IMG/VR virus record: IMGVR_UViG_3300027852_001277
DNA from: a virus
Length of the DNA: 64,000 nucleotides
Direction: 5' to 3' (one strand)
The position numbers were made by a program, and so were the translations under genes. Shown here piece by piece: positions 3,012-49,690 of the stretch (positions are counted from its first letter, which is position 1; every line of letters begins with the position of its first letter). The notes beneath the pieces were generated by a model. It was not told where the DNA came from. It did not search any database and saw nothing but the letters and a program-made list of their open reading frames with translations.

Positions 3012-4262
3012 ATGATAATTGTAACAGGACTAGGTAGATGCGGGACAAGTTTTTTGACTTATTTTTTGCAGCAAATAGGAATTAATGTTGGCACACATGG
3101 AACTCTTGATCCTTATATTCGAGCAGGGATGGAATGGAATAAGATGTATTCAATTATAGAACTTATGTATCGAGAGTTCCTCACATATGGCAAAATTAAT
3201 GCTGATACATACAAGGATACTGTAGCAGAAATAAATACTGAAGTTGTTAAGGATCCTAGATTAACCTGGGAACCTGAAATTTTAGAAGCATGGTATAAAC
3301 TCAAAGATTTTAAATTACTGATACTTCATCGTGAACCAATTGAAGATATTATAAAATCTAGACAAAGTTTGCCCATAAGTTATAGGGACCCAAAACGTGC
3401 AAATGATCCAAAGTTATTTAGAAACGATATTTGGAAATTTATGGCTAAAGTAGGTGAACTTGGAATAGACTTTAGAGTACTAATGTTTCCAGATTTCCTT
3501 TTTAACTACAAAGAAGTGTATGATGCTGTTACTTCTTTAGGAATAACATTTGACTTCGAAGAAGGGAATAAAAAGTGGGAAGAGATTATAGATACTGATT
3601 CTGTAACTTCTCTTAAACATAAACCAAAAGGAAATCCATCATATGTAGAATTATTCGAAAAAGTTGCTAGTTGGGAACCTTGCAGCATTCCATTCTCTTC
3701 ATTCTTTGTTTGGGATAGATGGGCTATACTTGGTGTTCTAGGTGACTATGCTTTATTTTTCGTAAAAGGTGATATTGTAGAAATAGGAATAGGAGAATCT
3801 TCTATATTTTTTACAAGGCTTGCTAAAAAGTACAATAGAAAAGCTTATCATTGTAGCGATCAAGCAAACGTTGTTGAATTATGTAAAAATATAGAAGGTT
3901 ACTTTGGGGAAAATGCTATTGTGCATAGCGGATCTTCTAATGATTTCTTTGAAACAATAGATATAAGAACTATAGCAGTTGCTTTGATAGATGTTACTGT
4001 ACATACTTACGAGCAAACCAAGAAAGATTTTGAAAATATTTTTAGCAAATTAAGTGAAAATGGAATTATATTTTTACATGATACTTACCCAATTAACGAA
4101 GATTTCTTAATTGACAATAAATGCGGCGATCTTTATAAATTAAGACAAGAACTAGAAAGAAGAGATGATGTAGATTGTTTTACATTTGTACATTCAGCTT
4201 GGGATGTTGGGTTAACAATGATTAGGAAAAAACCTAAAAATTTGAAATCTTATCAAGAATAA
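3012..4262 (+). CDS. sulfotransferase-like P-loop domain fused to class I SAM methyltransferase (Methyltransf_24-like)
   Basis: N-terminal IIVTGLGRCGTS and KDPRL motifs; C-terminal VEIGIGES, LIDV and GIIFLHD motifs. Confidence 0.65.
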   Translation: MIIVTGLGRCGTSFLTYFLQQIGINVGTHGTLDPYIRAGMEWNKMYSIIELMYREFLTYGKINADTYKDTVAEINTEVVKDPRLTWEPEILEAWYKLKDFKLLILHREPIEDIIKSRQSLPISYRDPKRANDPKLFRNDIWKFMAKVGELGIDFRVLMFPDFLFNYKEVYDAVTSLGITFDFEEGNKKWEEIIDTDSVTSLKHKPKGNPSYVELFEKVASWEPCSIPFSSFFVWDRWAILGVLGDYALFFVKGDIVEIGIGESSIFFTRLAKKYNRKAYHCSDQANVVELCKNIEGYFGENAIVHSGSSNDFFETIDIRTIAVALIDVTVHTYEQTKKDFENIFSKLSENGIIFLHDTYPINEDFLIDNKCGDLYKLRQELERRDDVDCFTFVHSAWDVGLTMIRKKPKNLKSYQE

Positions 4263-5288: not shown

Positions 5289-5308
5289 ATATGAACTTTA
5301 ATGTCATC

Positions 5309-5484
5309 GTTAATGGGATGGGAAGTAGCTTTGACCGACAGACGCCCTGTGGGTTACGGGAGCGATTGCTTGCACATTGGAAAAGGGTCCACCATTCTCA
5401 GGAATAGAGTAAACCCACTACCTCTTTGACACCTGAGTTACTGACGCATTATTGAATGCGCAAAAGTGCACCCATCCTATTAAC
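5309..5484 (+). ncRNA. candidate structured ncRNA (~176 nt), 6S-like architecture
   Basis: 14-bp terminal stem 5309-5322/5471-5484 (one G-U); inner helix 5349-5355/5412-5418; hairpin 5445-5460; intergenic and GC-richer than flanks. Confidence 0.55.
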
Positions 5485-5549
5485 ACTACTATACTATTAA
5501 GAGGAGAAGACAGCCAAAACAATTTCTAAAATAGAAAGGAGCCAAGATA

Positions 5550-5735: not shown

Positions 5736-6449
5736 ATGAAATTAGAAGTAAAAGCAAATTTAAAACCAGTTTACATCGAAGCTTCCACTTTGGATGATGC
5801 TTGGCATCAAGCAGTTTTCGAGTTATTTAAACATGGTTATAAATATAAAATTGACCATGGTAGTTACGAAGGTTCATATCGTTTAGAGTTCGATTGGGCA
5901 ACAATCAGAATAAAATTTCCAGGTGTAGAGCCAACAATTCCAGTTTTCCAAGAAGGTTCTACTCTCCCACCCCCAACAACAATGGAATATGTAAGAGATT
6001 ACTTCGAGCGGTATATCATGTCCGCAAGGAAAGAAATCGGTGAACAATACACGTATGGCGAACGTTTAGTCGCTGCTCCAATTGATGGACTAGAAAGTCC
6101 GATAGATCAGATTAATACAGCCATAAAACGTTATAAGGAGTTTGGTTTTAATTCGAATCAGGTCATCCTTCAAGTCGCACAACCAAAGGATATCACGTTA
6201 GAAGATCCTTCATGTTTGCGGCACATCGATACAAGAGTTCGCTACGGAGCTCTTCATTTATTTCCCTATTTCAGATCATGGGATTTGTGGGGTGGGTTTC
6301 CAGCTAACTTAGGAGCAATTCAACTTTTGAAATCTTACATGGCTGCTGAGTTAGATGTTGAAGATGGGGAGATCATTGCATCATCAAAAGGTCTTCATCT
6401 ATATAAACACGTAGAAGAAATAGCTAAGATGAGGTTTAACATACAATAA
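5736..6449 (+). CDS. thyA: thymidylate synthase (short, archaeal-like ThyA type)
   Basis: PSC catalytic Cys, FRSWD and PAN motifs, GLHLY; Asn at the substrate-specificity position suggests dUMP. Confidence 0.85.
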   Translation: MKLEVKANLKPVYIEASTLDDAWHQAVFELFKHGYKYKIDHGSYEGSYRLEFDWATIRIKFPGVEPTIPVFQEGSTLPPPTTMEYVRDYFERYIMSARKEIGEQYTYGERLVAAPIDGLESPIDQINTAIKRYKEFGFNSNQVILQVAQPKDITLEDPSCLRHIDTRVRYGALHLFPYFRSWDLWGGFPANLGAIQLLKSYMAAELDVEDGEIIASSKGLHLYKHVEEIAKMRFNIQ

Positions 6450-6895: not shown

Positions 6896-8107
6896 ATGAA
6901 TGCTGAACAACAAAAGATATTAACTGAGTTGCAAGATGCTTTAACAACAAACGATACTATAAAAATTGCTGATTCAATTTCTGATTTATTACATGTAGTT
7001 TATGGCACTGATGCTTCTTGTGTAATAGATGTAGAACCAATTTACGATGATGTAAATCGTACGAATATAATCAAAGTAAAACCACGCATCGCATCACTAA
7101 TAAAACAACAACAACCTTTAGTAAAGCCTGAAATTGAGCTACAAAAACTTTCCCAAAAACAAGAAGAAACATTTCACGTGAAATGTTTTTACCATTCAGC
7201 TGATTTAGACGGTTATTGTTCAGGTGCTCTTGTTAAGTTAAAATATCCTCAATGTGAACTAATAGGTATCGATTACATGGATGAGTTTCCCTGGTCCTCT
7301 TTAACTCCTTCGGAAAAGGTCTTCATGGTTGATTTCAGTTTGCCTACCCAGGATATGTTTTCACTCGAAGCTTCAGTAGGAACTGGTAATCTAATTTGGA
7401 TAGATCATCATAAGTCTGCAATCGAGGACTTCCAAAAAACTGGGAAAATGTTACCAGGAATCCAAAAAATCGGTATCGGAGCATGTTCACTTGTTTTCGA
7501 TTACCTTTTTCCTGAAGTATCCCCAACACCTACTTTTGTGAAGCTTCTTGCTGAATACGATGTGTTCAATCATTCAGATCCTCGTACTTTGCCTTTTCAA
7601 TATGGTATGCGTAGTCACAACACAAATCCAGAAAATCAACCCTTTTGGAAAGAATTGTTATCTCTCCAAAAAGTACAACAAATCGTAGAAGATGGTAAAC
7701 CTATTCTTGCTTACAACAGCAAAAGCAACGAGCTTTACGTCAAAAGTTGTTCGTTCGAAATAGAGTTTGATGGTTTAAAATTTATCGCTGCTAACAAATT
7801 GAGAACCAACCACCAACTTTTCGATTCAGTGTGGGATGAAACAAAGTACGATGCTATGCTTTGTTTTGGTTACCAAAAAGGTCAATGGACAGTTTCGATG
7901 TATTCAACTAAACAAGATGTAGATGTTTCTTTAACAGCAAAGAAATGGGGAGGAGGAGGTCATAAGAAAGCAGCAGGATTTTCTTGCAAGGAGTTACCTT
8001 TTTCAATAAAAGCTAGTTTGGCTTATCCGAATTATGGTGATACAGAGTTACGAATTTCCAACACCGAATGCAAGCAAGTTACTAATCGAATACAAAGTTC
8101 TGATTAA
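6896..8107 (+). CDS. DHH/DHHA1 phosphoesterase with N-terminal MazG-like (NTP-PPase) fragment
   Basis: YHSADLDG, VDFS, IDHH, GGGGHKKAAGF; N-terminus ELQDAL...IADSISDLLHVVYGT. Confidence 0.85.
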   Translation: MNAEQQKILTELQDALTTNDTIKIADSISDLLHVVYGTDASCVIDVEPIYDDVNRTNIIKVKPRIASLIKQQQPLVKPEIELQKLSQKQEETFHVKCFYHSADLDGYCSGALVKLKYPQCELIGIDYMDEFPWSSLTPSEKVFMVDFSLPTQDMFSLEASVGTGNLIWIDHHKSAIEDFQKTGKMLPGIQKIGIGACSLVFDYLFPEVSPTPTFVKLLAEYDVFNHSDPRTLPFQYGMRSHNTNPENQPFWKELLSLQKVQQIVEDGKPILAYNSKSNELYVKSCSFEIEFDGLKFIAANKLRTNHQLFDSVWDETKYDAMLCFGYQKGQWTVSMYSTKQDVDVSLTAKKWGGGGHKKAAGFSCKELPFSIKASLAYPNYGDTELRISNTECKQVTNRIQSSD

Positions 8108-8170
8108 ATACAAACAAGGTTTTCCTCTCTTTTATTAGAATCAGTTTAGGAGAATAAACAACAAAACAAA

Positions 8171-8286
8171 GGCAATTTTCCGGTTTTAGGCAGTTTTAGG
8201 CAGGGCTGACGCGAGTGCCTAGAAATTCTGCCTCTATGATGGCAAAAGATGCCTCTATTACATATTCTCAGATGTTAAAAACGGGA
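8171..8286. repeat. non-coding element A, copy 1 (phased GGCA/TGCC sites)
   Basis: 28-bp identity 8181-8208 with 19151-19178; same-offset TGCCT and TAAAAACGGGA motifs. Confidence 0.8.
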
Positions 8287-8359
8287 TTAACCCTTTTAAA
8301 AAAGGGAAGGAAACAAAGAATTGGCGCCGAAGTTGTTCCAGGAACAAAGGAGGACTAAA

Positions 8360-11195: not shown

Positions 11196-11456
11196 ATGGA
11201 AGAGATCATAATATCACGAGTGAGAGGTTGTAGTGGTAGACCGTGCAGTGGGGCGCGATGGAAGAGGGGTGTTGGTTGGGTTAAGAAGTTCGAGAATCTA
11301 CTGGAACTTACTCAGTTCGTTCGGAAGGAAGGAGCAATTGTACTTAGTGTAGTTGATTGGGAAAAGTTTGTGACTGATGATAACATTAACGAGTATTGGA
11401 AATTTGCTGGAGGTGCTCAACTGAAGCTTGACATTTATAATACTTATATGGAATAA
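11196..11456 (+). CDS. hypothetical protein
   Basis: ORF with GAGG RBS. Confidence 0.55.
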   Translation: MEEIIISRVRGCSGRPCSGARWKRGVGWVKKFENLLELTQFVRKEGAIVLSVVDWEKFVTDDNINEYWKFAGGAQLKLDIYNTYME

Positions 11457-11475
11457 GCTGGAAGGAGATATCCTA

Positions 11476-12096
11476 ATGACAACAAATACAATAATAGCTG
11501 AAGATTTCGAGTCGTCATTTAAGGTAACTGGGACTTATATAGTAAGAAACGGAGTTTATGATGTTGAAGGCGACGTCCTTTTGATTAAGAAGGTGGAAAC
11601 TTTACCATTCAAGTTTGGTGTAGTTACTAGAAATTTTCGATGCAGTGACAACAACCTCGTATCTCTTGAAGGTGCCCCTGTTAAAGTAGGAGGAACTTTT
11701 GATTGTATGTTTAACAAGCTCGTCTCTCTTGAAGGTGCACCTAAAGAAGTAGGAGGAGGTTTTTGGTGCAGTGATAATAACCTAACTTCCCTTGAAGGTA
11801 CTCCTGTTAAAGTAGAAGGAGGTTTTGATTGTAGCTTTAATAAGCTTATCTCTGTTAAAGGTGCTCCCAAAGAAGTAGTAAGAACTTTTTGGTGTCACAA
11901 CAATGAGCTTGTATCTCTCAAAGGTGCACCTGTTAAAGTAGGAGGAAGTTTTGATTGTAGCTTTAATAAGCTCATCTCCCTTGAATATGCTCCTAAAGAA
12001 GTAGAAAGAGATTTTTGGTGTAATGATAATGTAAAATTGTTTATTAAGGAAGAAGTAGAAGCAGTATCTAATGTTGGGAGAAGCATTTATGTTTGA
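11476..12096 (+). CDS. LRR-solenoid protein #1 (6 x 21-aa units, N- and C-cap)
   Basis: 63-nt periodic units LxSLxGAPxxVGGxFxCxxNx; ATG at 11476 after AGGAGA. Confidence 0.9.
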   Translation: MTTNTIIAEDFESSFKVTGTYIVRNGVYDVEGDVLLIKKVETLPFKFGVVTRNFRCSDNNLVSLEGAPVKVGGTFDCMFNKLVSLEGAPKEVGGGFWCSDNNLTSLEGTPVKVEGGFDCSFNKLISVKGAPKEVVRTFWCHNNELVSLKGAPVKVGGSFDCSFNKLISLEYAPKEVERDFWCNDNVKLFIKEEVEAVSNVGRSIYV

Positions 12097-14860: not shown

Positions 14861-15610
14861 ATGACAACAATAGAATGCAGTAATGAAAATGATTTTGAAA
14901 GTTGCTTTAAGATAAAAGGGACTTACACAGTAAGAGACGGAGTTTATGATGTTGATGGTAATATCCTTCTGATTAAGAAGGTGGAAACTTTACCGTTTAA
15001 ATTTGGTATAGTTACTGGGAATTTTCTGTGTAACGACAACAAGCTCCGTTCTCTTGAAGGCGTTCCTACTAAAGTAGGAGGAAATTTTGATTGTTGTAGA
15101 AATAACCTAACTTCTTTAGAAGGTGTTCCTGTTAAAGTAGGGAAAAATTTTTGGTGTAACGATAACAAGCTTACCACCCTGAAAGGCGCCCCTGAAGAAA
15201 TAGAAGGAATTTTTAATTGTAGGTTTAACAAACTTACCTCTCTCGAAGGTGCTCCTGTCAAAATAGGAGAAGATTTTTTATGTATGTTTAATAACCTTCA
15301 CTCCCTTGAAGGTGCTCCTAAAGAAGTAGGAACAGGTTTTTGGTGTTGCTGTAACAACCTCACCTCCCTCAAAGGTGCTCCCCTTAAAGTAGGTGGAGAT
15401 TTTGATTGTGGTGATAATGAACTTGCCTCCCTTGAAGGTGCTCCTGAAGAAATAGGAGGAACTTTTTGGTGCAATAGAAACAAGCTTCGATCTCTTAAAG
15501 GTGCGCCTAAAGAAGTAGGAGGAGATTTTTTGTGTAACAATAATGAAAAATTGTTTACTATAGAGGAAGTAAAAGCAGTATCCAAAGTTGGAAAAGGGTA
15601 TTTATGTTGA
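14861..15610 (+). CDS. LRR-solenoid protein #2 (8 units)
   Basis: Same N-cap, 21-aa units and C-cap. Confidence 0.9.
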   Translation: MTTIECSNENDFESCFKIKGTYTVRDGVYDVDGNILLIKKVETLPFKFGIVTGNFLCNDNKLRSLEGVPTKVGGNFDCCRNNLTSLEGVPVKVGKNFWCNDNKLTTLKGAPEEIEGIFNCRFNKLTSLEGAPVKIGEDFLCMFNNLHSLEGAPKEVGTGFWCCCNNLTSLKGAPLKVGGDFDCGDNELASLEGAPEEIGGTFWCNRNKLRSLKGAPKEVGGDFLCNNNEKLFTIEEVKAVSKVGKGYLC

Positions 15611-20142: not shown

Positions 20143-21087
20143 TCAACAACACGTTTTCAACAATCCGTTTTGTCCTCCTATCATCAACATAGATACTGCT
20201 CTTATTTCTTCTATAGTAAACAACATTACATTATTGTCACACCGAAAACCTCTTCCTACTTTTTTAGGTGCACCTTTTAAAGAAATAAGTTTGTTAAACC
20301 TACAACAAAAATCTTCTCCTACTTTGATAGGAGCGCCTTTGAGGGAAGTTAGTTCGTTATTGTTACAATTAAAATCACCTCCTACTTCTTTAGGTGACCC
20401 TTCGAGAGATACAAGCTTGTTAAAGCTACAATCAAAGCTTTCTCCCACTTCTTTAGGAGCGCCTTCGAGGGAACGGATATTGTTGTCATTACACAAAAAA
20501 GTTCCTCCTACTTTTGTAGGGGCGCCTTCAATGGAGTGAAGTTCGTTAAACATACAATTAAAATCTCCTCCTACTTTTGTAGGGGCATTATCGAGAGATG
20601 TGAGCTTGTTTCCACTACAATCAAAATCACCTCTTGTTTCTTTGGGTGCACCTTTAAGGGAACGGATATTGTTGTCGTTGCACCAGAAATTTCCTTTTGT
20701 TTCTTTAGGAGCGCCTTCGAGAGAAACAAGCTTGTTTCTGCTGCACCAAAAATCACCTTTTGTTTCTTTAGGTGCCCCTTTGAGAGAGACGAGCTTGTTG
20801 TCATTACACAAAAAAGTTCCTCCTACTTTTGTAGGGGCGCCTTCGAGGGAGGTGAGGTTATTTCTATTACAATAAAAACCTCCACCTACTTCTTTAGGAG
20901 CACCTTTTAAAGAGGTGAGGTTATTTTTGACACACCAAAAAGTTCCAGTAACTATACCAAACTTGAAGGGGAAAGACTCCACGTTTCTAAGTAGAATGAC
21001 GTCACCATTGACGTCATAAATGTTATTTTTTACTGAATAAATTCCTATTATCTTAAAGTACGATTTAAAATCTTCAGCTATTGTCAT
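20143..21087 (-). CDS. LRR-solenoid protein #3 (11 units; C-cap diverges after RAVS)
   Basis: N-cap and repeats; tail runs into a low-complexity tract. Confidence 0.9.
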   Translation of the reverse strand: MTIAEDFKSYFKIIGIYSVKNNIYDVNGDVILLRNVESFPFKFGIVTGTFWCVKNNLTSLKGAPKEVGGGFYCNRNNLTSLEGAPTKVGGTFLCNDNKLVSLKGAPKETKGDFWCSRNKLVSLEGAPKETKGNFWCNDNNIRSLKGAPKETRGDFDCSGNKLTSLDNAPTKVGGDFNCMFNELHSIEGAPTKVGGTFLCNDNNIRSLEGAPKEVGESFDCSFNKLVSLEGSPKEVGGDFNCNNNELTSLKGAPIKVGEDFCCRFNKLISLKGAPKKVGRGFRCDNNVMLFTIEEIRAVSMLMIGGQNGLLKTCC

Positions 21088-31328: not shown

Positions 31329-32243
31329 CTAACTTTTATTTTTTTCCTTCTCCAGAGTATCTTTTGCAATTTCCGTATCTCGCTTTACTTTAATAGGTGT
31401 ATCCTTAAGAGAAGTAAGTTTGTTATATTTACACCAAAAACTTCCCGCTACTTTTGTAAGAGTGCCTTTGATGAAGTGTAGATTGTCAAACCTACACCAA
31501 AAACTTTCTCCTACTTCTTTAGGAGCTCCTTCGAGGGAGTAAAGCTCGTTACTGCTGCACCAAAAATCTCCTCCTATTTCTTTAGGAGCGCCTTCAATGG
31601 AGTGGAGCTTGTTACCGTTACATTCAAAATTTCCTCCTACTTTAACAGGTGCACCTTCGAGAGAGGTGAGATCGTTATAGCTACACCAGAAATTTCCTCC
31701 TACTTCTTTAGGAGCTCCTTCGAGGGAGCAAAGCTCGTTACTGCTGCACCAAAAATCTCCTCCTACTTTTATAGGGGAACCCTTAAGAGAAGTAAGCTTA
31801 TTATAGCTGCACCAAAAACCTCCTACTATTTCTTTAGGTGCGTCTTTGAGAGAAACAAGCTTGTTGTTACTGCACCAAAAATCTCCTCCTACTTTTACAG
31901 GAGCACCTTTGAGAGAAGTAAGCTCGTTGTTACTATTACAATAAAAACTTCCTCCTACTTTAACAGGTGCATCCTTGAGAGAAGTAAGCTCGTTATCCCT
32001 ACAATCAAAATTTTCCCCTATTTTTGTAGGAGTGTTTTTTAGCGAAGTGAGTTTGTTTTTACTACAATCAAAACTTCCAGTAACTGTACCGAACTTAAAA
32101 GGGAGAGACTCCGTATTCCTAATAAGAAAGACGTTACCTTCTACATAATAAATGTTATCTTTTAATGTGTAAGTTCCATCTATCTGAAAGTATGATTCGA
32201 AATCATCTTCATTTTTACATTTTAGTTCATTAACTATTTGCAT
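31329..32243 (-). CDS. LRR-solenoid protein #4 (10 units plus partial, no canonical C-cap)
   Basis: N-cap and repeats. Confidence 0.9.
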   Translation of the reverse strand: MQIVNELKCKNEDDFESYFQIDGTYTLKDNIYYVEGNVFLIRNTESLPFKFGTVTGSFDCSKNKLTSLKNTPTKIGENFDCRDNELTSLKDAPVKVGGSFYCNSNNELTSLKGAPVKVGGDFWCSNNKLVSLKDAPKEIVGGFWCSYNKLTSLKGSPIKVGGDFWCSSNELCSLEGAPKEVGGNFWCSYNDLTSLEGAPVKVGGNFECNGNKLHSIEGAPKEIGGDFWCSSNELYSLEGAPKEVGESFWCRFDNLHFIKGTLTKVAGSFWCKYNKLTSLKDTPIKVKRDTEIAKDTLEKEKNKS

Positions 32244-32833: not shown

Positions 32834-33571
32834 CTACGCTATCTTATAGGAGCGTTTATTTTCTTGCTTCGTCAAGTTATTCCCATTACAATAAAAATTT
32901 CCCCCTACTTTAACAGGTGCACCTTCAAGAGAGGTGAGATTGTTATAGCTACACCAAAAATTTCCTCCTACTTCTTTAGGAGCACCTTTTAGGGAAACAA
33001 GGTTATTTCTATAACACCAAAAAGCTCTTCCTACTTTTATAGGAGCGCCTTCGAGGGAAGTAAGCTTATTAAACCTACAATCAAAACTTCCTCCTACTTC
33101 TTCAGGAGCGCCTTTCAGTGTGGTGATCTTGTTGTCGTCACACCAAAAACTTCCTCCTACTTCAACAGGTGAACCTTTAAGTGAGACGAGTTCATTTTCA
33201 CTACACCAAAAATGCCCCCCTACTTTTTTCGGAGCTCCTTCAAGAAAGGTAAGGCTATTTTCACTGCAATCAAAATCCCTTCCTACTTCTTTAGGAGCGC
33301 CCTCAAGGGAGATTAGGTTATTTTCACTGCAATCAAAATCTTTTCCTACTTTAACAGGTGCACCTTTAAGTGAGGTGAGCCTTTTGTTACTACAATCAAA
33401 ACTTCCAGTAACTGTACCGAACTTAAATGGGAAAGACTCTACTTTCCTGATGAGGAAGACGTTACCCTTAACATCATAAACTTCATCTCTTACTGAGTAA
33501 GTTCCCTCTACCTTGAAGTACGATTCGAAATCATCTTCGTTAGGCGTTATCTCCGGTTCATTTTCACGCAT
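32834..33571 (-). CDS. LRR-solenoid protein #5 (8 units, no canonical C-cap)
   Basis: N-cap and repeats. Confidence 0.9.
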   Translation of the reverse strand: MRENEPEITPNEDDFESYFKVEGTYSVRDEVYDVKGNVFLIRKVESFPFKFGTVTGSFDCSNKRLTSLKGAPVKVGKDFDCSENNLISLEGAPKEVGRDFDCSENSLTFLEGAPKKVGGHFWCSENELVSLKGSPVEVGGSFWCDDNKITTLKGAPEEVGGSFDCRFNKLTSLEGAPIKVGRAFWCYRNNLVSLKGAPKEVGGNFWCSYNNLTSLEGAPVKVGGNFYCNGNNLTKQENKRSYKIA

Positions 33572-33615: not shown

Positions 33616-34611
33616 TTATAAGTTTACCTTAAACTTTCGAGGAAATCTCTTTTTTACCTCTTCTATAGTAAACACTTTTTTATTACCAGTACAATCAAAA
33701 GTTCCCACTACTTCTTCAGGAGCACCTTCAAGGGAAGTTAGTTCGTTATAGCTACACCAAAAATTCCCCATTACTTCTTTAGGTGCATATTTTAGGGAAG
33801 TGAGCTTATTAAACCTACAATCAAAACTTCCTTCTATTTTAACAGGGGCGCCTTTCAGTGTTGTGAGCTTGTTGTCGTTACACCAAAAAGTTCCCCCTAC
33901 TTCTTCGGGAGCACCTTCAAGAGAGGTTAGTTCGTTTTCACTACACCAAAAAGTCCCACCTACTTTTTTAGTAGCGATTTCGAGCGAGATAAGGTTATTT
34001 CTGATACACCTAAAATCTCTTCCTACTTTAGCAGGTGCTCCTTTCAGAGAGGTGAGGTTATTTTCGCGACAATCAAAATCTCTTCCGACTTCTTCGGGAG
34101 CACCTTCAAGAGAAACAAGCTTATTTTCGTTACACCAAAAATCTTCTCCTACTTTTTCGGGAGCGCCTTCAAGGGAGATGAGGTTATTTTCGCTACAACC
34201 AAAATCTCTTCCTACTTCTTTAGGTGCGCCCTCAAGAGAGGTAAGGCTATTTTCACTGCAATCAAAATCTTTTCCTACTTTAGTAGGTGCTCCTTTCAGA
34301 GAGGTGAGGTTATTTTCGCGGCAATTAAAATCCCTTCCTACTTCCTTAGGGACGCCTATGAGGGATGTAAGGCTATTTTCACTGCAATCAAAATCTATTC
34401 CTACTTTAACAGGTGCGCCTTTAAGTGAGGTGAGCCCTTTGTTACTACAATCAAAAGTTCCCGTAACTATACCAAACTTAAAAGGGAGAGACTCCATATT
34501 CCTAAGAAGAAGGACGCCACCTTCTACATCATAAACGTTATCTTTTACTGTGTAAGTTCCCTCTATCTTGAAATACGATTCGAAAGTTCCTTGATTATTA
34601 ACTTCTTTCAT
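33616..34611 (-). CDS. LRR-solenoid protein #6 (12 units)
   Basis: N-cap, repeats, KVFTIEEV. Confidence 0.9.
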   Translation of the reverse strand: MKEVNNQGTFESYFKIEGTYTVKDNVYDVEGGVLLLRNMESLPFKFGIVTGTFDCSNKGLTSLKGAPVKVGIDFDCSENSLTSLIGVPKEVGRDFNCRENNLTSLKGAPTKVGKDFDCSENSLTSLEGAPKEVGRDFGCSENNLISLEGAPEKVGEDFWCNENKLVSLEGAPEEVGRDFDCRENNLTSLKGAPAKVGRDFRCIRNNLISLEIATKKVGGTFWCSENELTSLEGAPEEVGGTFWCNDNKLTTLKGAPVKIEGSFDCRFNKLTSLKYAPKEVMGNFWCSYNELTSLEGAPEEVVGTFDCTGNKKVFTIEEVKKRFPRKFKVNL

Positions 34612-39158: not shown

Positions 39159-40091
39159 CTACCATTTAACATAAATACTTTTTCCAACTTTAGATATTGC
39201 TCTTATTTCCTCTATAGTAAACAATGTTACATTGCCATTACATCGAAAACCTCCTCCTACTTCTTTAGGAGCACCTTTCAAAGATGTAAGCTTATTGAAC
39301 CTGCAATAAAAGTTTCCTCCTACTTTGATGGGGGCATATTCAAGAGAGATGAGCTTGTTATTATTGCAATCAAAATCTCTTCCTACTTTAATAGGAGCAC
39401 CTTTAAGAGAAGTGAGTTCGTTGTCCCTACACCAAAAATCCTCACTTACTTCAATAGGTGCGCATTCAAGAGAAATGAGCTTATTTCCACTACAATCAAA
39501 ATTTCCTTCTACTTTTTTAGGCGCGCCTTTCAGAGAAAGGAGCTTGTTATCACTACAATCAAAATCTTCTCCTACTTCTACAGAAGCACCTTTGAGAGAG
39601 TGGAGCTTGTTGTTACTACAGTCAAAAGTTACTCCTACTTCTTTAGGAGCACCTTCTAGAGAGGTAAGTTCGTTTCTGCTACACCAAAAACTCCCACCTA
39701 CTTTTGTAGGAGCACCTTCTAAAGAGGTGAGCTTATTATAACCACACCAAAAATTTCCTCCTACTTCTTTAGGTGCGCCTTTGAGAGAAACAAGCTTGTT
39801 GTCGTTACACCAAAGAAATCCTCCTACTTTAACAGGAGCTCCTATGAGAGATGTGAGCTTGTTTTTGCTACACCAAAAATTTCCTCCTACTTCTTCCGGA
39901 GCGCCTTCAAGAGAGGTAAGTTTATTTTCGGAGCACCAAAAATTCCCAGTAACTACACCAAACCTAAATGGTAAAGTTTCCACTTTCTTAAGTAGAGTTA
40001 TGTCGCCATTTATGTTATAAATTTTATTTTTTACTATGTAAGTTCCGTTTATCCGGAAGTACGATTCGAAACCATCTTCAGCTGTTGTCAT
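39159..40091 (-). CDS. LRR-solenoid protein #9 (11 units)
   Basis: N-cap, repeats, C-cap. Confidence 0.9.
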   Translation of the reverse strand: MTTAEDGFESYFRINGTYIVKNKIYNINGDITLLKKVETLPFRFGVVTGNFWCSENKLTSLEGAPEEVGGNFWCSKNKLTSLIGAPVKVGGFLWCNDNKLVSLKGAPKEVGGNFWCGYNKLTSLEGAPTKVGGSFWCSRNELTSLEGAPKEVGVTFDCSNNKLHSLKGASVEVGEDFDCSDNKLLSLKGAPKKVEGNFDCSGNKLISLECAPIEVSEDFWCRDNELTSLKGAPIKVGRDFDCNNNKLISLEYAPIKVGGNFYCRFNKLTSLKGAPKEVGGGFRCNGNVTLFTIEEIRAISKVGKSIYVKW

Positions 40092-40153: not shown

Positions 40154-40708
40154 CTATTTAGTAAACAATTTAATATTATCACCGCAATCAAAATCTCTTC
40201 CTACTTTTTTAGGTGCACCTTTAAGAGTGACGAGTTTGTTTCCACTACACCAAAAACCTCTTCCTACTTCTTTGGGTGCACCTTTAAGTGAAGTGAGGTT
40301 GTTATTGTGACACCAAAAATCACCTTTTATTCTAGTGGGGGACCCTTTAAGAGATATAAGCTTGTTGTTACTACATTCAAAAGCTCTTCCTACTTTAGTA
40401 GGTGCACCTTCGAGAGAGGTAAGTTTGTTGTTACCACAATAAAAAGCTCCTTCTACTTTAATAGGTGCACCTTTCAAGGTAGTGAGCTTGTTGTTACAGC
40501 AATAAAAACCTCCTCCTACTTCTTTAGGTGCGCCTTTAAGAGAAGTAAGCTCCATGCTACCGCAATTAAAAGCTCCTGTAATTACACTAAACCTAAATGG
40601 TAAGGTTCCGACTTTCTTAATCAATATTACATCACCATCGACGTAATACATTTTATTTTTTATCTCATAAGTTCCGTATATTTTAAAATATTCTTCTAAT
40701 TCTATCAT
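40154..40708 (-). CDS. LRR-solenoid protein #10 (6 units; amber stop inside the C-cap)
   Basis: TAG at 40154-40156 followed in frame by EVEAVTRVGKNIYTRR to 40103. Confidence 0.85.
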   Translation of the reverse strand: MIELEEYFKIYGTYEIKNKMYYVDGDVILIKKVGTLPFRFSVITGAFNCGSMELTSLKGAPKEVGGGFYCCNNKLTTLKGAPIKVEGAFYCGNNKLTSLEGAPTKVGRAFECSNNKLISLKGSPTRIKGDFWCHNNNLTSLKGAPKEVGRGFWCSGNKLVTLKGAPKKVGRDFDCGDNIKLFTK

Positions 40709-46814: not shown

Positions 46815-46906
46815 TAGCTACCTCCTTCTCTATTAGGTTTATTAACATTACAGTACCAATTTGAATTTATCCCCTTATTTATTAAGGGGAGCCGTAAAAT
46901 CGAAAA

Positions 46907-46979
46907 TGAGTCGCACAGGGATCGAACCTGTGACCACCTGATTAAAAGTCAGATGCTCTACCAACTGAGCTAGCGACTC
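46907..46979 (-). tRNA. trnK: tRNA-Lys (UUU), no encoded CCA
   Basis: GAGTCGC acceptor stem, AGCTCAGTTGGTAGAGC D arm, CTGAC-TTTTAAT-CAG region with TTT anticodon, GGTTCGATCC T arm. Confidence 0.95.
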
Positions 46980-46994
46980 ATTTTATAACGTCTT

Positions 46995-48817: not shown

Positions 48818-49690
48818 TTAACCCGTAATTAAAATCTCTCCTGCTCTAACATAGGAACCATTTAGAAAAGTGAGCTTGTTTTTACCACACCAAAAACCTC
48901 TTCCTACTTTTATAGGAGCGCCTTCGAATGAGATGAGGTTGTTATTGTCGCACCAAAAATCTCCTCCTACTTCTTTAGGCGCACCTTCGAGGGAGACGAG
49001 CTTGTTGTTAATACAACCAAAATTACCTTTTACTTTAACAGGAGCACCTTTGAGGAAGTGGAGCTTGTTATAACCACACCAAAAACTTCCTCCTACTTCT
49101 TTAGGAGCGCCTTTGAGGGAGGTTAGTTCATTGTCACCGCACCCAAAATCTCCTCTTACTTCTTTAGGAGCACCTTCAAGGGAAGTTAGTTTATTATCGT
49201 TACAATCAAAATCTCCCCCTACTTTTGTAGGAGCGTCTTTAAGGGAATGGAGATTATTACCATCACACCAAAAGCCTCTTCCTACTTCTTCGGGAGCGCC
49301 TTTGAGAGATACAAGCTTGTTTCTAGTACAATCAAAACCACCTTCTACTTTTACAGGTGCACCTTCAAGAGAAGTGAGGTTGTTTTCGCTACACCAAAAA
49401 TCTCCTCCTACTTTCATAGGAGCACCTTTGAGAGAGGTGAGTTTATTTTCCCCACACCAAAAATCTCCCACTACTTCTTCCGGAGCGCCTTTAAGAGAGG
49501 TAAGGTTATTTTCACTGCAATTAAAATTTCCAGTGACTACACCAAACTTGAACGGCAGAGACTCTACTTTCCTAAGAAGAAGGACGTCGCCTTTGACGTC
49601 GTAAACTTTATCTCTTATTGTGTAAGTCCCTTTTACTTCGAAGTACGATTCGAAGTTATCTTCGATAGGCGCTACTTCATTTTTATACAT
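48818..49690 (-). CDS. LRR-solenoid protein #11 (10 units plus partial)
   Basis: N-cap and repeats; sits between pyrF and pyrD. Confidence 0.9.
   Translation of the reverse strand: MYKNEVAPIEDNFESYFEVKGTYTIRDKVYDVKGDVLLLRKVESLPFKFGVVTGNFNCSENNLTSLKGAPEEVVGDFWCGENKLTSLKGAPMKVGGDFWCSENNLTSLEGAPVKVEGGFDCTRNKLVSLKGAPEEVGRGFWCDGNNLHSLKDAPTKVGGDFDCNDNKLTSLEGAPKEVRGDFGCGDNELTSLKGAPKEVGGSFWCGYNKLHFLKGAPVKVKGNFGCINNKLVSLEGAPKEVGGDFWCDNNNLISFEGAPIKVGRGFWCGKNKLTFLNGSYVRAGEILITG

Follow-up and report, generated by a model that had tools for sequence, protein, structure and literature searches.

The intercistronic stems that RNase III processes in phage transcripts, for example the early and late sites of T7 and the N-leader and sib sites of lambda, are simple hairpins of about 50–60 nt that carry an internal loop and a helix of roughly 20 bp. 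6S RNA (SsrS; RF00013) is about 180 nt long, and a long helix connects its 5′ end with its 3′ end. At the DNA level, bacterial MITEs and structured intergenic repeats include the Correia, ERIC and REP-type elements. A candidate structured RNA element of an uncultured large phage, located on the + strand at positions 5309–5484 of the analysed stretch of 64,000 nucleotides (hereafter, the window), can be compared with each of these systems. Like the RNase III stems of phages, this element lies between co-directional cistrons, lacks both its own promoter and its own terminator, and contains a stable duplex that by analogy could be cleaved or could protect an end. Unlike them, it extends over 176 nt, its interior is complex, and only 14 pairs (about 18 at most) are contiguous or stacked; its uninterrupted helix of 14 bp, plus three or four stacked pairs, has to be set against the approximately two helical turns of a classical RNase III site. 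The likeness to 6S RNA lies in the size and in the long helix that holds both ends. On the other hand, the element has no covariance-model match, its predicted fold is multi-branched, the strands that should form a bubble are paired in that fold, and there is no sign of an independent transcription unit or of conservation. Finally, the element resembles MITEs in falling within the range of about 100–200 bp, in its terminal inverted repeats (13/14 positions complementary at the DNA level), in its intergenic position and in being foldable if transcribed. It differs from them in being single-copy, with no clear target-site duplication and with no multiple dispersed copies in the collections searched, which were scanned for exact patterns only.

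Position and predicted fold of the element

The element lies in a gap of 261 nt (5289–5549) between two small ORFs of the + strand. The upstream one encodes 75 aa (P0122, 5061–5288) and, judging from its 13 homologues at 44–66% identity, is a real gene. The downstream one encodes 57 aa (P0121, 5550–5723), has a GTG start after AAAGGAG, 65 nt downstream of the element, and matches phrog_35223 with its N-terminus. The same + strand block continues with a gene of the thymidylate-synthase family (5736–6449, +; PF00303 at 2e-11; phrog_160) and, after it, a MazG/DHH phosphoesterase fusion (6896–8107, +). Between about 900 and about 8100, the gap that contains the element is the only one longer than 120 nt in this tightly packed block, and among all gaps above that length it has the highest GC content, tied with one gap that is probably coding. 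The element itself has a GC fraction of 0.477, compared with 0.27 and 0.33 in its 60-nt flanks, and only 1.2% of the 176-nt windows along the 64 kb match or exceed this value. The contrast with the 150-nt flanks places the element in the top 2.6% of positions, hence other positions are comparable. Stop codons interrupt every frame across the element, and none of its ATG ORFs is preceded by a strong ribosome-binding site of the kind found at real genes here; a small protein gene was therefore rejected. When the 42-aa frame that crosses the element was compared with 1.84 billion proteins, only long repetitive proteins were retrieved.

A scan for promoters and terminators listed no such sites flanking the element. 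In fact, the TTTAAT at 5297–5302 (+), which the original prediction had offered as a −10 box, does exist 6 nt upstream of the element, but it has no credible −35 partner and is absent from the scan. On the other side, 15 nt past the element, the sequence reads as a strong Shine-Dalgarno-like AAGAGGAG (5499–5506, +) with no start codon in reach. This motif is complementary to CCUCUU (5421–5426) within the element.

According to thermodynamic prediction, the best fold is multi-branched, with a minimum free energy of −61.2 kcal/mol, and comprises a terminal helix, one long hairpin and a four-way junction with three hairpins. The 14-bp closing stem previously described was recovered as the terminal helix, in which the 5′ arm GUUAAUGGGAUGGG (5309–5322) pairs with the 3′ arm CCCAUCCUAUUAAC (5471–5484) at probabilities of 0.95–1.0. 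Thirteen of these pairs are Watson-Crick and the remaining one, G5315–U5478, is a wobble on the + strand and a C–A mismatch on the − strand; three or four further stacked pairs are possible, for a total of up to about 18. Four G–U pairs are possible on the + strand alone. The long hairpin (hairpin A, 5328–5363) has a core at 5332–5356 with an ACGCC loop and core pairs at probabilities of 0.95–1.0. The four-way-junction domain (5372–5469), closed by GCAC/GUGC (5372–5375/5466–5469; probability 0.67), contains a small UGGA/UCCA hairpin with an AAAGGG loop (5378–5391; 0.6–0.78), a CUCAGG/CCUGAG hairpin with a 12-nt apical loop, UAAACCCACUAC (5397–5437; 0.89–0.94), and a side hairpin (5442–5462) whose CGCAUU/AAUGCG stem (5445–5450/5455–5460; 0.78–0.95) had also been anticipated. 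None of the hairpin loops belongs to the usual stable tetraloop types. The domain boundaries are unchanged when the 176 nt are folded alone, within the 261-nt gap or within 676 nt of transcript context, and in the last two folds the ribosome-binding site at 5538–5543 stays outside the folded domain.

Other parts of the structure first proposed are not reproduced by the ensemble. For example, AGUAGC and GUUACU (5324–5329/5437–5442), as well as GUGGGUU and AACCCAC (5349–5355/5412–5418), are indeed complementary, but as helices they reach probabilities of only 0.035 and about 0, respectively. CUCAGG (5397–5402) and CCUGAG (5432–5437) are also complementary as stated; instead of forming a pseudoknot, they pair in the best fold as a regular, nested helix (probability about 0.9). 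The strands of 18–19 nt that were thought to be unpaired are mostly paired in local hairpins, the one at 5332–5356 with a probability of at least 0.95. Over 5330–5348, which would be the 5′ strand of the bubble and is the stem of hairpin A, the unpaired probability is near 0 except in the loop.

The comparison with shuffled controls came out in favour of the element, since none of 200 dinucleotide shuffles was as stable as the + strand (z −4.2). The − strand folds more weakly (z −2.6), and the interior without the terminal helix gives a z of −1.8, with 10 of the 200 shuffles as good. When the 20 gaps longer than 120 nt were folded against their shuffles, three were clearly better, namely those of the element, of a tRNA-Lys that served as positive control, and of positions 8108–8320. 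Inverted repeats with at least 13/14 matches within 300 nt number about 12 in the window, compared with about 8 expected by chance in a rough estimate. The GC-adjusted fold energy lies about 2.9 SD under expectation, a value that a handful of the 2,900 scanned windows, several of them coding, equal. Taken together, the evidence for structure goes moderately beyond chance, as several moderate signals coincide, judged post hoc. Composition, the stability of the fold, the asymmetry between the strands and the location give moderate support to the notion that the + strand holds a candidate for a structured non-coding RNA, but not to its 6S particulars.

Searches for relatives

The only further copy found, on a Logan contig (L051), is 100% identical to the element. 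Blastn searches with the element gave nothing in GenBank phages, plasmids or E. coli genomes, and blastn and nhmmer gave nothing in 50 IMG/VR loci around relatives of the thymidylate-synthase gene. A covariance model built on the element (R1), which was run on all gathered loci, likewise found nothing in these 50, and it detected no relative in 37 whole IMG/VR records or in 156 genomes of Thermodesulfobacteriota (5, then 151). This phylum contains the closest cellular thymidylate synthases, with 61–65% identity. The sole R1 match, of 17 bits, falls within a 485-aa ORF, shows many broken pairs and was discarded as noise. BLAST against 401 Thermodesulfobacteriota genomes returned only chance matches of 17–27 nt, and three clustered matches proved to be unrelated coding motifs. 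The large collections were scanned for the DNA of the element with exact patterns only: six exact or loop-only patterns had no match in IMG/VR, one pattern (the repeat pair) had none in the GTDB species genomes, and two patterns had a single, unrelated match in the JGI metagenomes. The latter, in a soil metagenome (L059, 1989–2210), is an inverted repeat with perfect arms of about 35 bp around some 107 nt of high GC; R1 does not recognise it, and the only sequence that it shares with the element, the 15-mer TAATGGGATGGGAAG, is probably a chance match.

The neighbouring genes were also used as guides. None of three loci with homologues of the 75-aa gene (L056–L058) carries the element. Upstream of the single distant homologue of the 57-aa gene, the corresponding gap is occupied by a small ORF, with no element. 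The nearest phage relatives, whose thymidylate-synthase gene is 65% identical, have no gap at the position of the element, and nothing similar was found in the gaps upstream of the thymidylate-synthase gene in two bacterial relatives (L148, L061). Because these searches found no diverged homologue, there is no covariation support for the fold.

The comparison with Rfam that had been suggested, against RF00013 and all other families, was negative. There was no match at the element at the gathering threshold in a search of the whole window, and searches of 601 nt and 206 nt with lax filters and E ≤ 10 produced only noise (HIV-1 SL4, a CRISPR repeat, snoRNAs). Since nothing relevant appeared at E ≤ 10, a 6S model would score below about 15 bits here. 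The element cannot be assigned to any catalogued RNA family and is a candidate among the orphan structured RNAs of large phages.

Competing readings of the element

Our preferred reading, which we hold tentatively and with somewhat less than an even chance of being right, is that the element may be an orphan, lineage-specific structured RNA domain of the + strand, co-transcribed with its neighbours and acting via its terminal helix as a processing or stability module. Since it lacks its own promoter and terminator, we infer that the element would be transcribed together with the surrounding small ORFs and nucleotide-metabolism genes. The very stable 14-bp end helix would then close the compact multi-branched interior and might serve as a double-strand-specific module, of the RNase III-site or protective-end type, that separates the upstream small-ORF message from the downstream message for the 57-aa protein and thymidylate synthase. 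A compact RNA product of about 176 nt could possibly result from processing. This RNA reading is favoured by the GC contrast, by the lone large gap, by the difference between the two strands in z score, by the four G–U pairs available on the + strand alone, by the stable domain boundaries, by the rank of the gap among the 20 compared, and by the lack of an open frame and of a promoter or terminator. On the other hand, it is weakened by the absence of homologues, by the marginal interior, by the chance-level number of 13/14 repeats, by a GC contrast that other positions share, by loops that are not common stable tetraloops and by a helix that, at 14 bp, is short for a classical RNase III site. 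A bolder proposal, to which we give little credence, is that the element might be the first representative of a new class of phage trans-acting RNAs, which would be cut from an early or middle polycistronic transcript, would divert a host protein (RNA polymerase, a nuclease or a defence sensor) and would appear orphan since the lineage is nearly unsampled. If real, the element would extend the growing list of uncatalogued structured RNAs from large uncultured phages, with a nucleotide-metabolism block as its setting; its present worth is that of a flagged candidate, pending closer relatives or transcriptomes.

A phage mimic of 6S RNA would be notable, and such a decoy, with a central bubble resembling an open promoter and sequestering the sigma-70 RNA polymerase of the host, was the original prediction. 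The evidence speaks against it, and we regard it as very improbable. The 176 nt and the long closing helix are compatible with 6S RNA, the helices named in its support are all truly complementary, and a rod-like alternative is separated from the best fold by 5.9 kcal/mol (−55.3 kcal/mol for the rod with the rest free to pair; −36.9 for the bare rod helices). The energy model is not accurate enough for a difference of this size to exclude the rod by itself. However, the internal helices of the rod are nearly absent from the ensemble, keeping both bubble strands single-stranded is predicted to cost 13.9 kcal/mol, and the apical domain is branched. Together with the lack of any RF00013 or related-model match, of a promoter and terminator in the scan, and of homologues, this leaves no positive 6S feature besides the size and the closing stem. 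Another possibility is a cis-acting leader, either riboswitch-like or a protein-binding operator, for the 57-aa ORF and the thymidylate-synthase gene. The 65-nt distance to the next start codon and the nucleotide-metabolism context would suit such a role, as would the pairing potential of the Shine-Dalgarno-like motif with the element. We nevertheless consider it improbable, given that no known aptamer class was matched in Rfam, that there is no terminator, that the real ribosome-binding site is not sequestered by a helix, that the 14-bp terminal helix is far stabler than typical switching P1 helices, and that the corresponding gaps of the bacterial relatives hold nothing similar.

Two further explanations dispense with RNA function, and both are unlikely in our estimation. 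The element could be inserted DNA, either a MITE-like unit with 14-bp terminal inverted repeats or a higher-GC foreign relic. Its inverted repeats mark precisely where the GC-rich block starts and stops, TA/TTAA occurs at both ends and could hide a palindromic target duplication, the neighbourhoods of the nearest relatives of the upstream gene, the downstream gene and the thymidylate-synthase gene lack the element, and the interior only marginally beats its shuffles. Against this, there is one copy in 64 kb, the repeat-pair pattern has no match in IMG/VR or in the GTDB species genomes and only the unrelated high-GC one in JGI, no transposase was seen nearby, and the G–U pairs and strand asymmetry point to constraint at the RNA level. 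Nor is there an unambiguous direct-repeat target duplication: outside the inverted repeats no direct repeat occurs, and the inner palindromic TA or TTAA is indistinguishable from the repeat itself. Alternatively, the locus might be a non-functional spacer in which a 14-bp inverted repeat and a GC-richer sequence coincide by chance, as the repeat count close to expectation, the fold energy matched elsewhere in the window and the z score of the interior would allow. The triple coincidence, estimated post hoc as about 12 × 0.012 × the gap fraction, is nonetheless expected well under 0.1 times, and a spacer of 261 nt is unusual for such a compact block. Other ideas were rejected. An antisense cassette was set aside, as complementarity to the rest of the window never extends beyond 12 nt and the 401 genomes yielded just the short chance matches described above. 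A retron-like element, an idea prompted by an 11-nt resemblance, was dismissed as no reverse transcriptase was seen in the vicinity and no match turned up in the E. coli genomes.

Other observations on the phage

The proteins of the window occur on a contig as long as 131,952 bp, and no close relative was found among GenBank phages. The phage also encodes a dCMP deaminase, a 5′-3′ deoxyribonucleotidase and an ATP-dependent DNA ligase. Among cellular genes, the nearest relatives of its thymidylate-synthase-family gene are chromosomal and belong to metagenome-assembled genomes of Thermodesulfobacteriota/'Deltaproteobacteria' (loci L065 and L060–L063), including ORM2a (CP113000). Their similarity may be a clue to the lineage of the host or to where the gene came from. 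DUF6811 is encoded at two of these loci (L062 and L063) and in the phage at 1915–2265.

The gap at 8108–8320 (+), a second strong folder with a z of −3.1, contains a tandem TTTTAGGCAG and a long hairpin. The tRNA-Lys (anticodon UUU; 46906–46980, −) is the sole match of both Rfam and ARAGORN in the window. At least eight paralogues matching phrog_7816/phrog_21719 are spread along the window, at 11428–12096, 14861–15610, 20143–21087 (−), 31329–32243 (−), 32834–33571 (−), 33616–34611 (−), 39159–40091 (−) and 48818–49690 (−), and two strongly self-complementary stretches (20637–20988 and 40349–40568) fall within genes of this family. Finally, the gene at 3012–4262 (+) encodes a 416-aa protein with a weak N-terminal sulfotransferase-like match and a Methyltransf_24 domain, and two related phage contigs (L052, L053) carry a similar protein of 435 aa close to their thymidylate-synthase gene.
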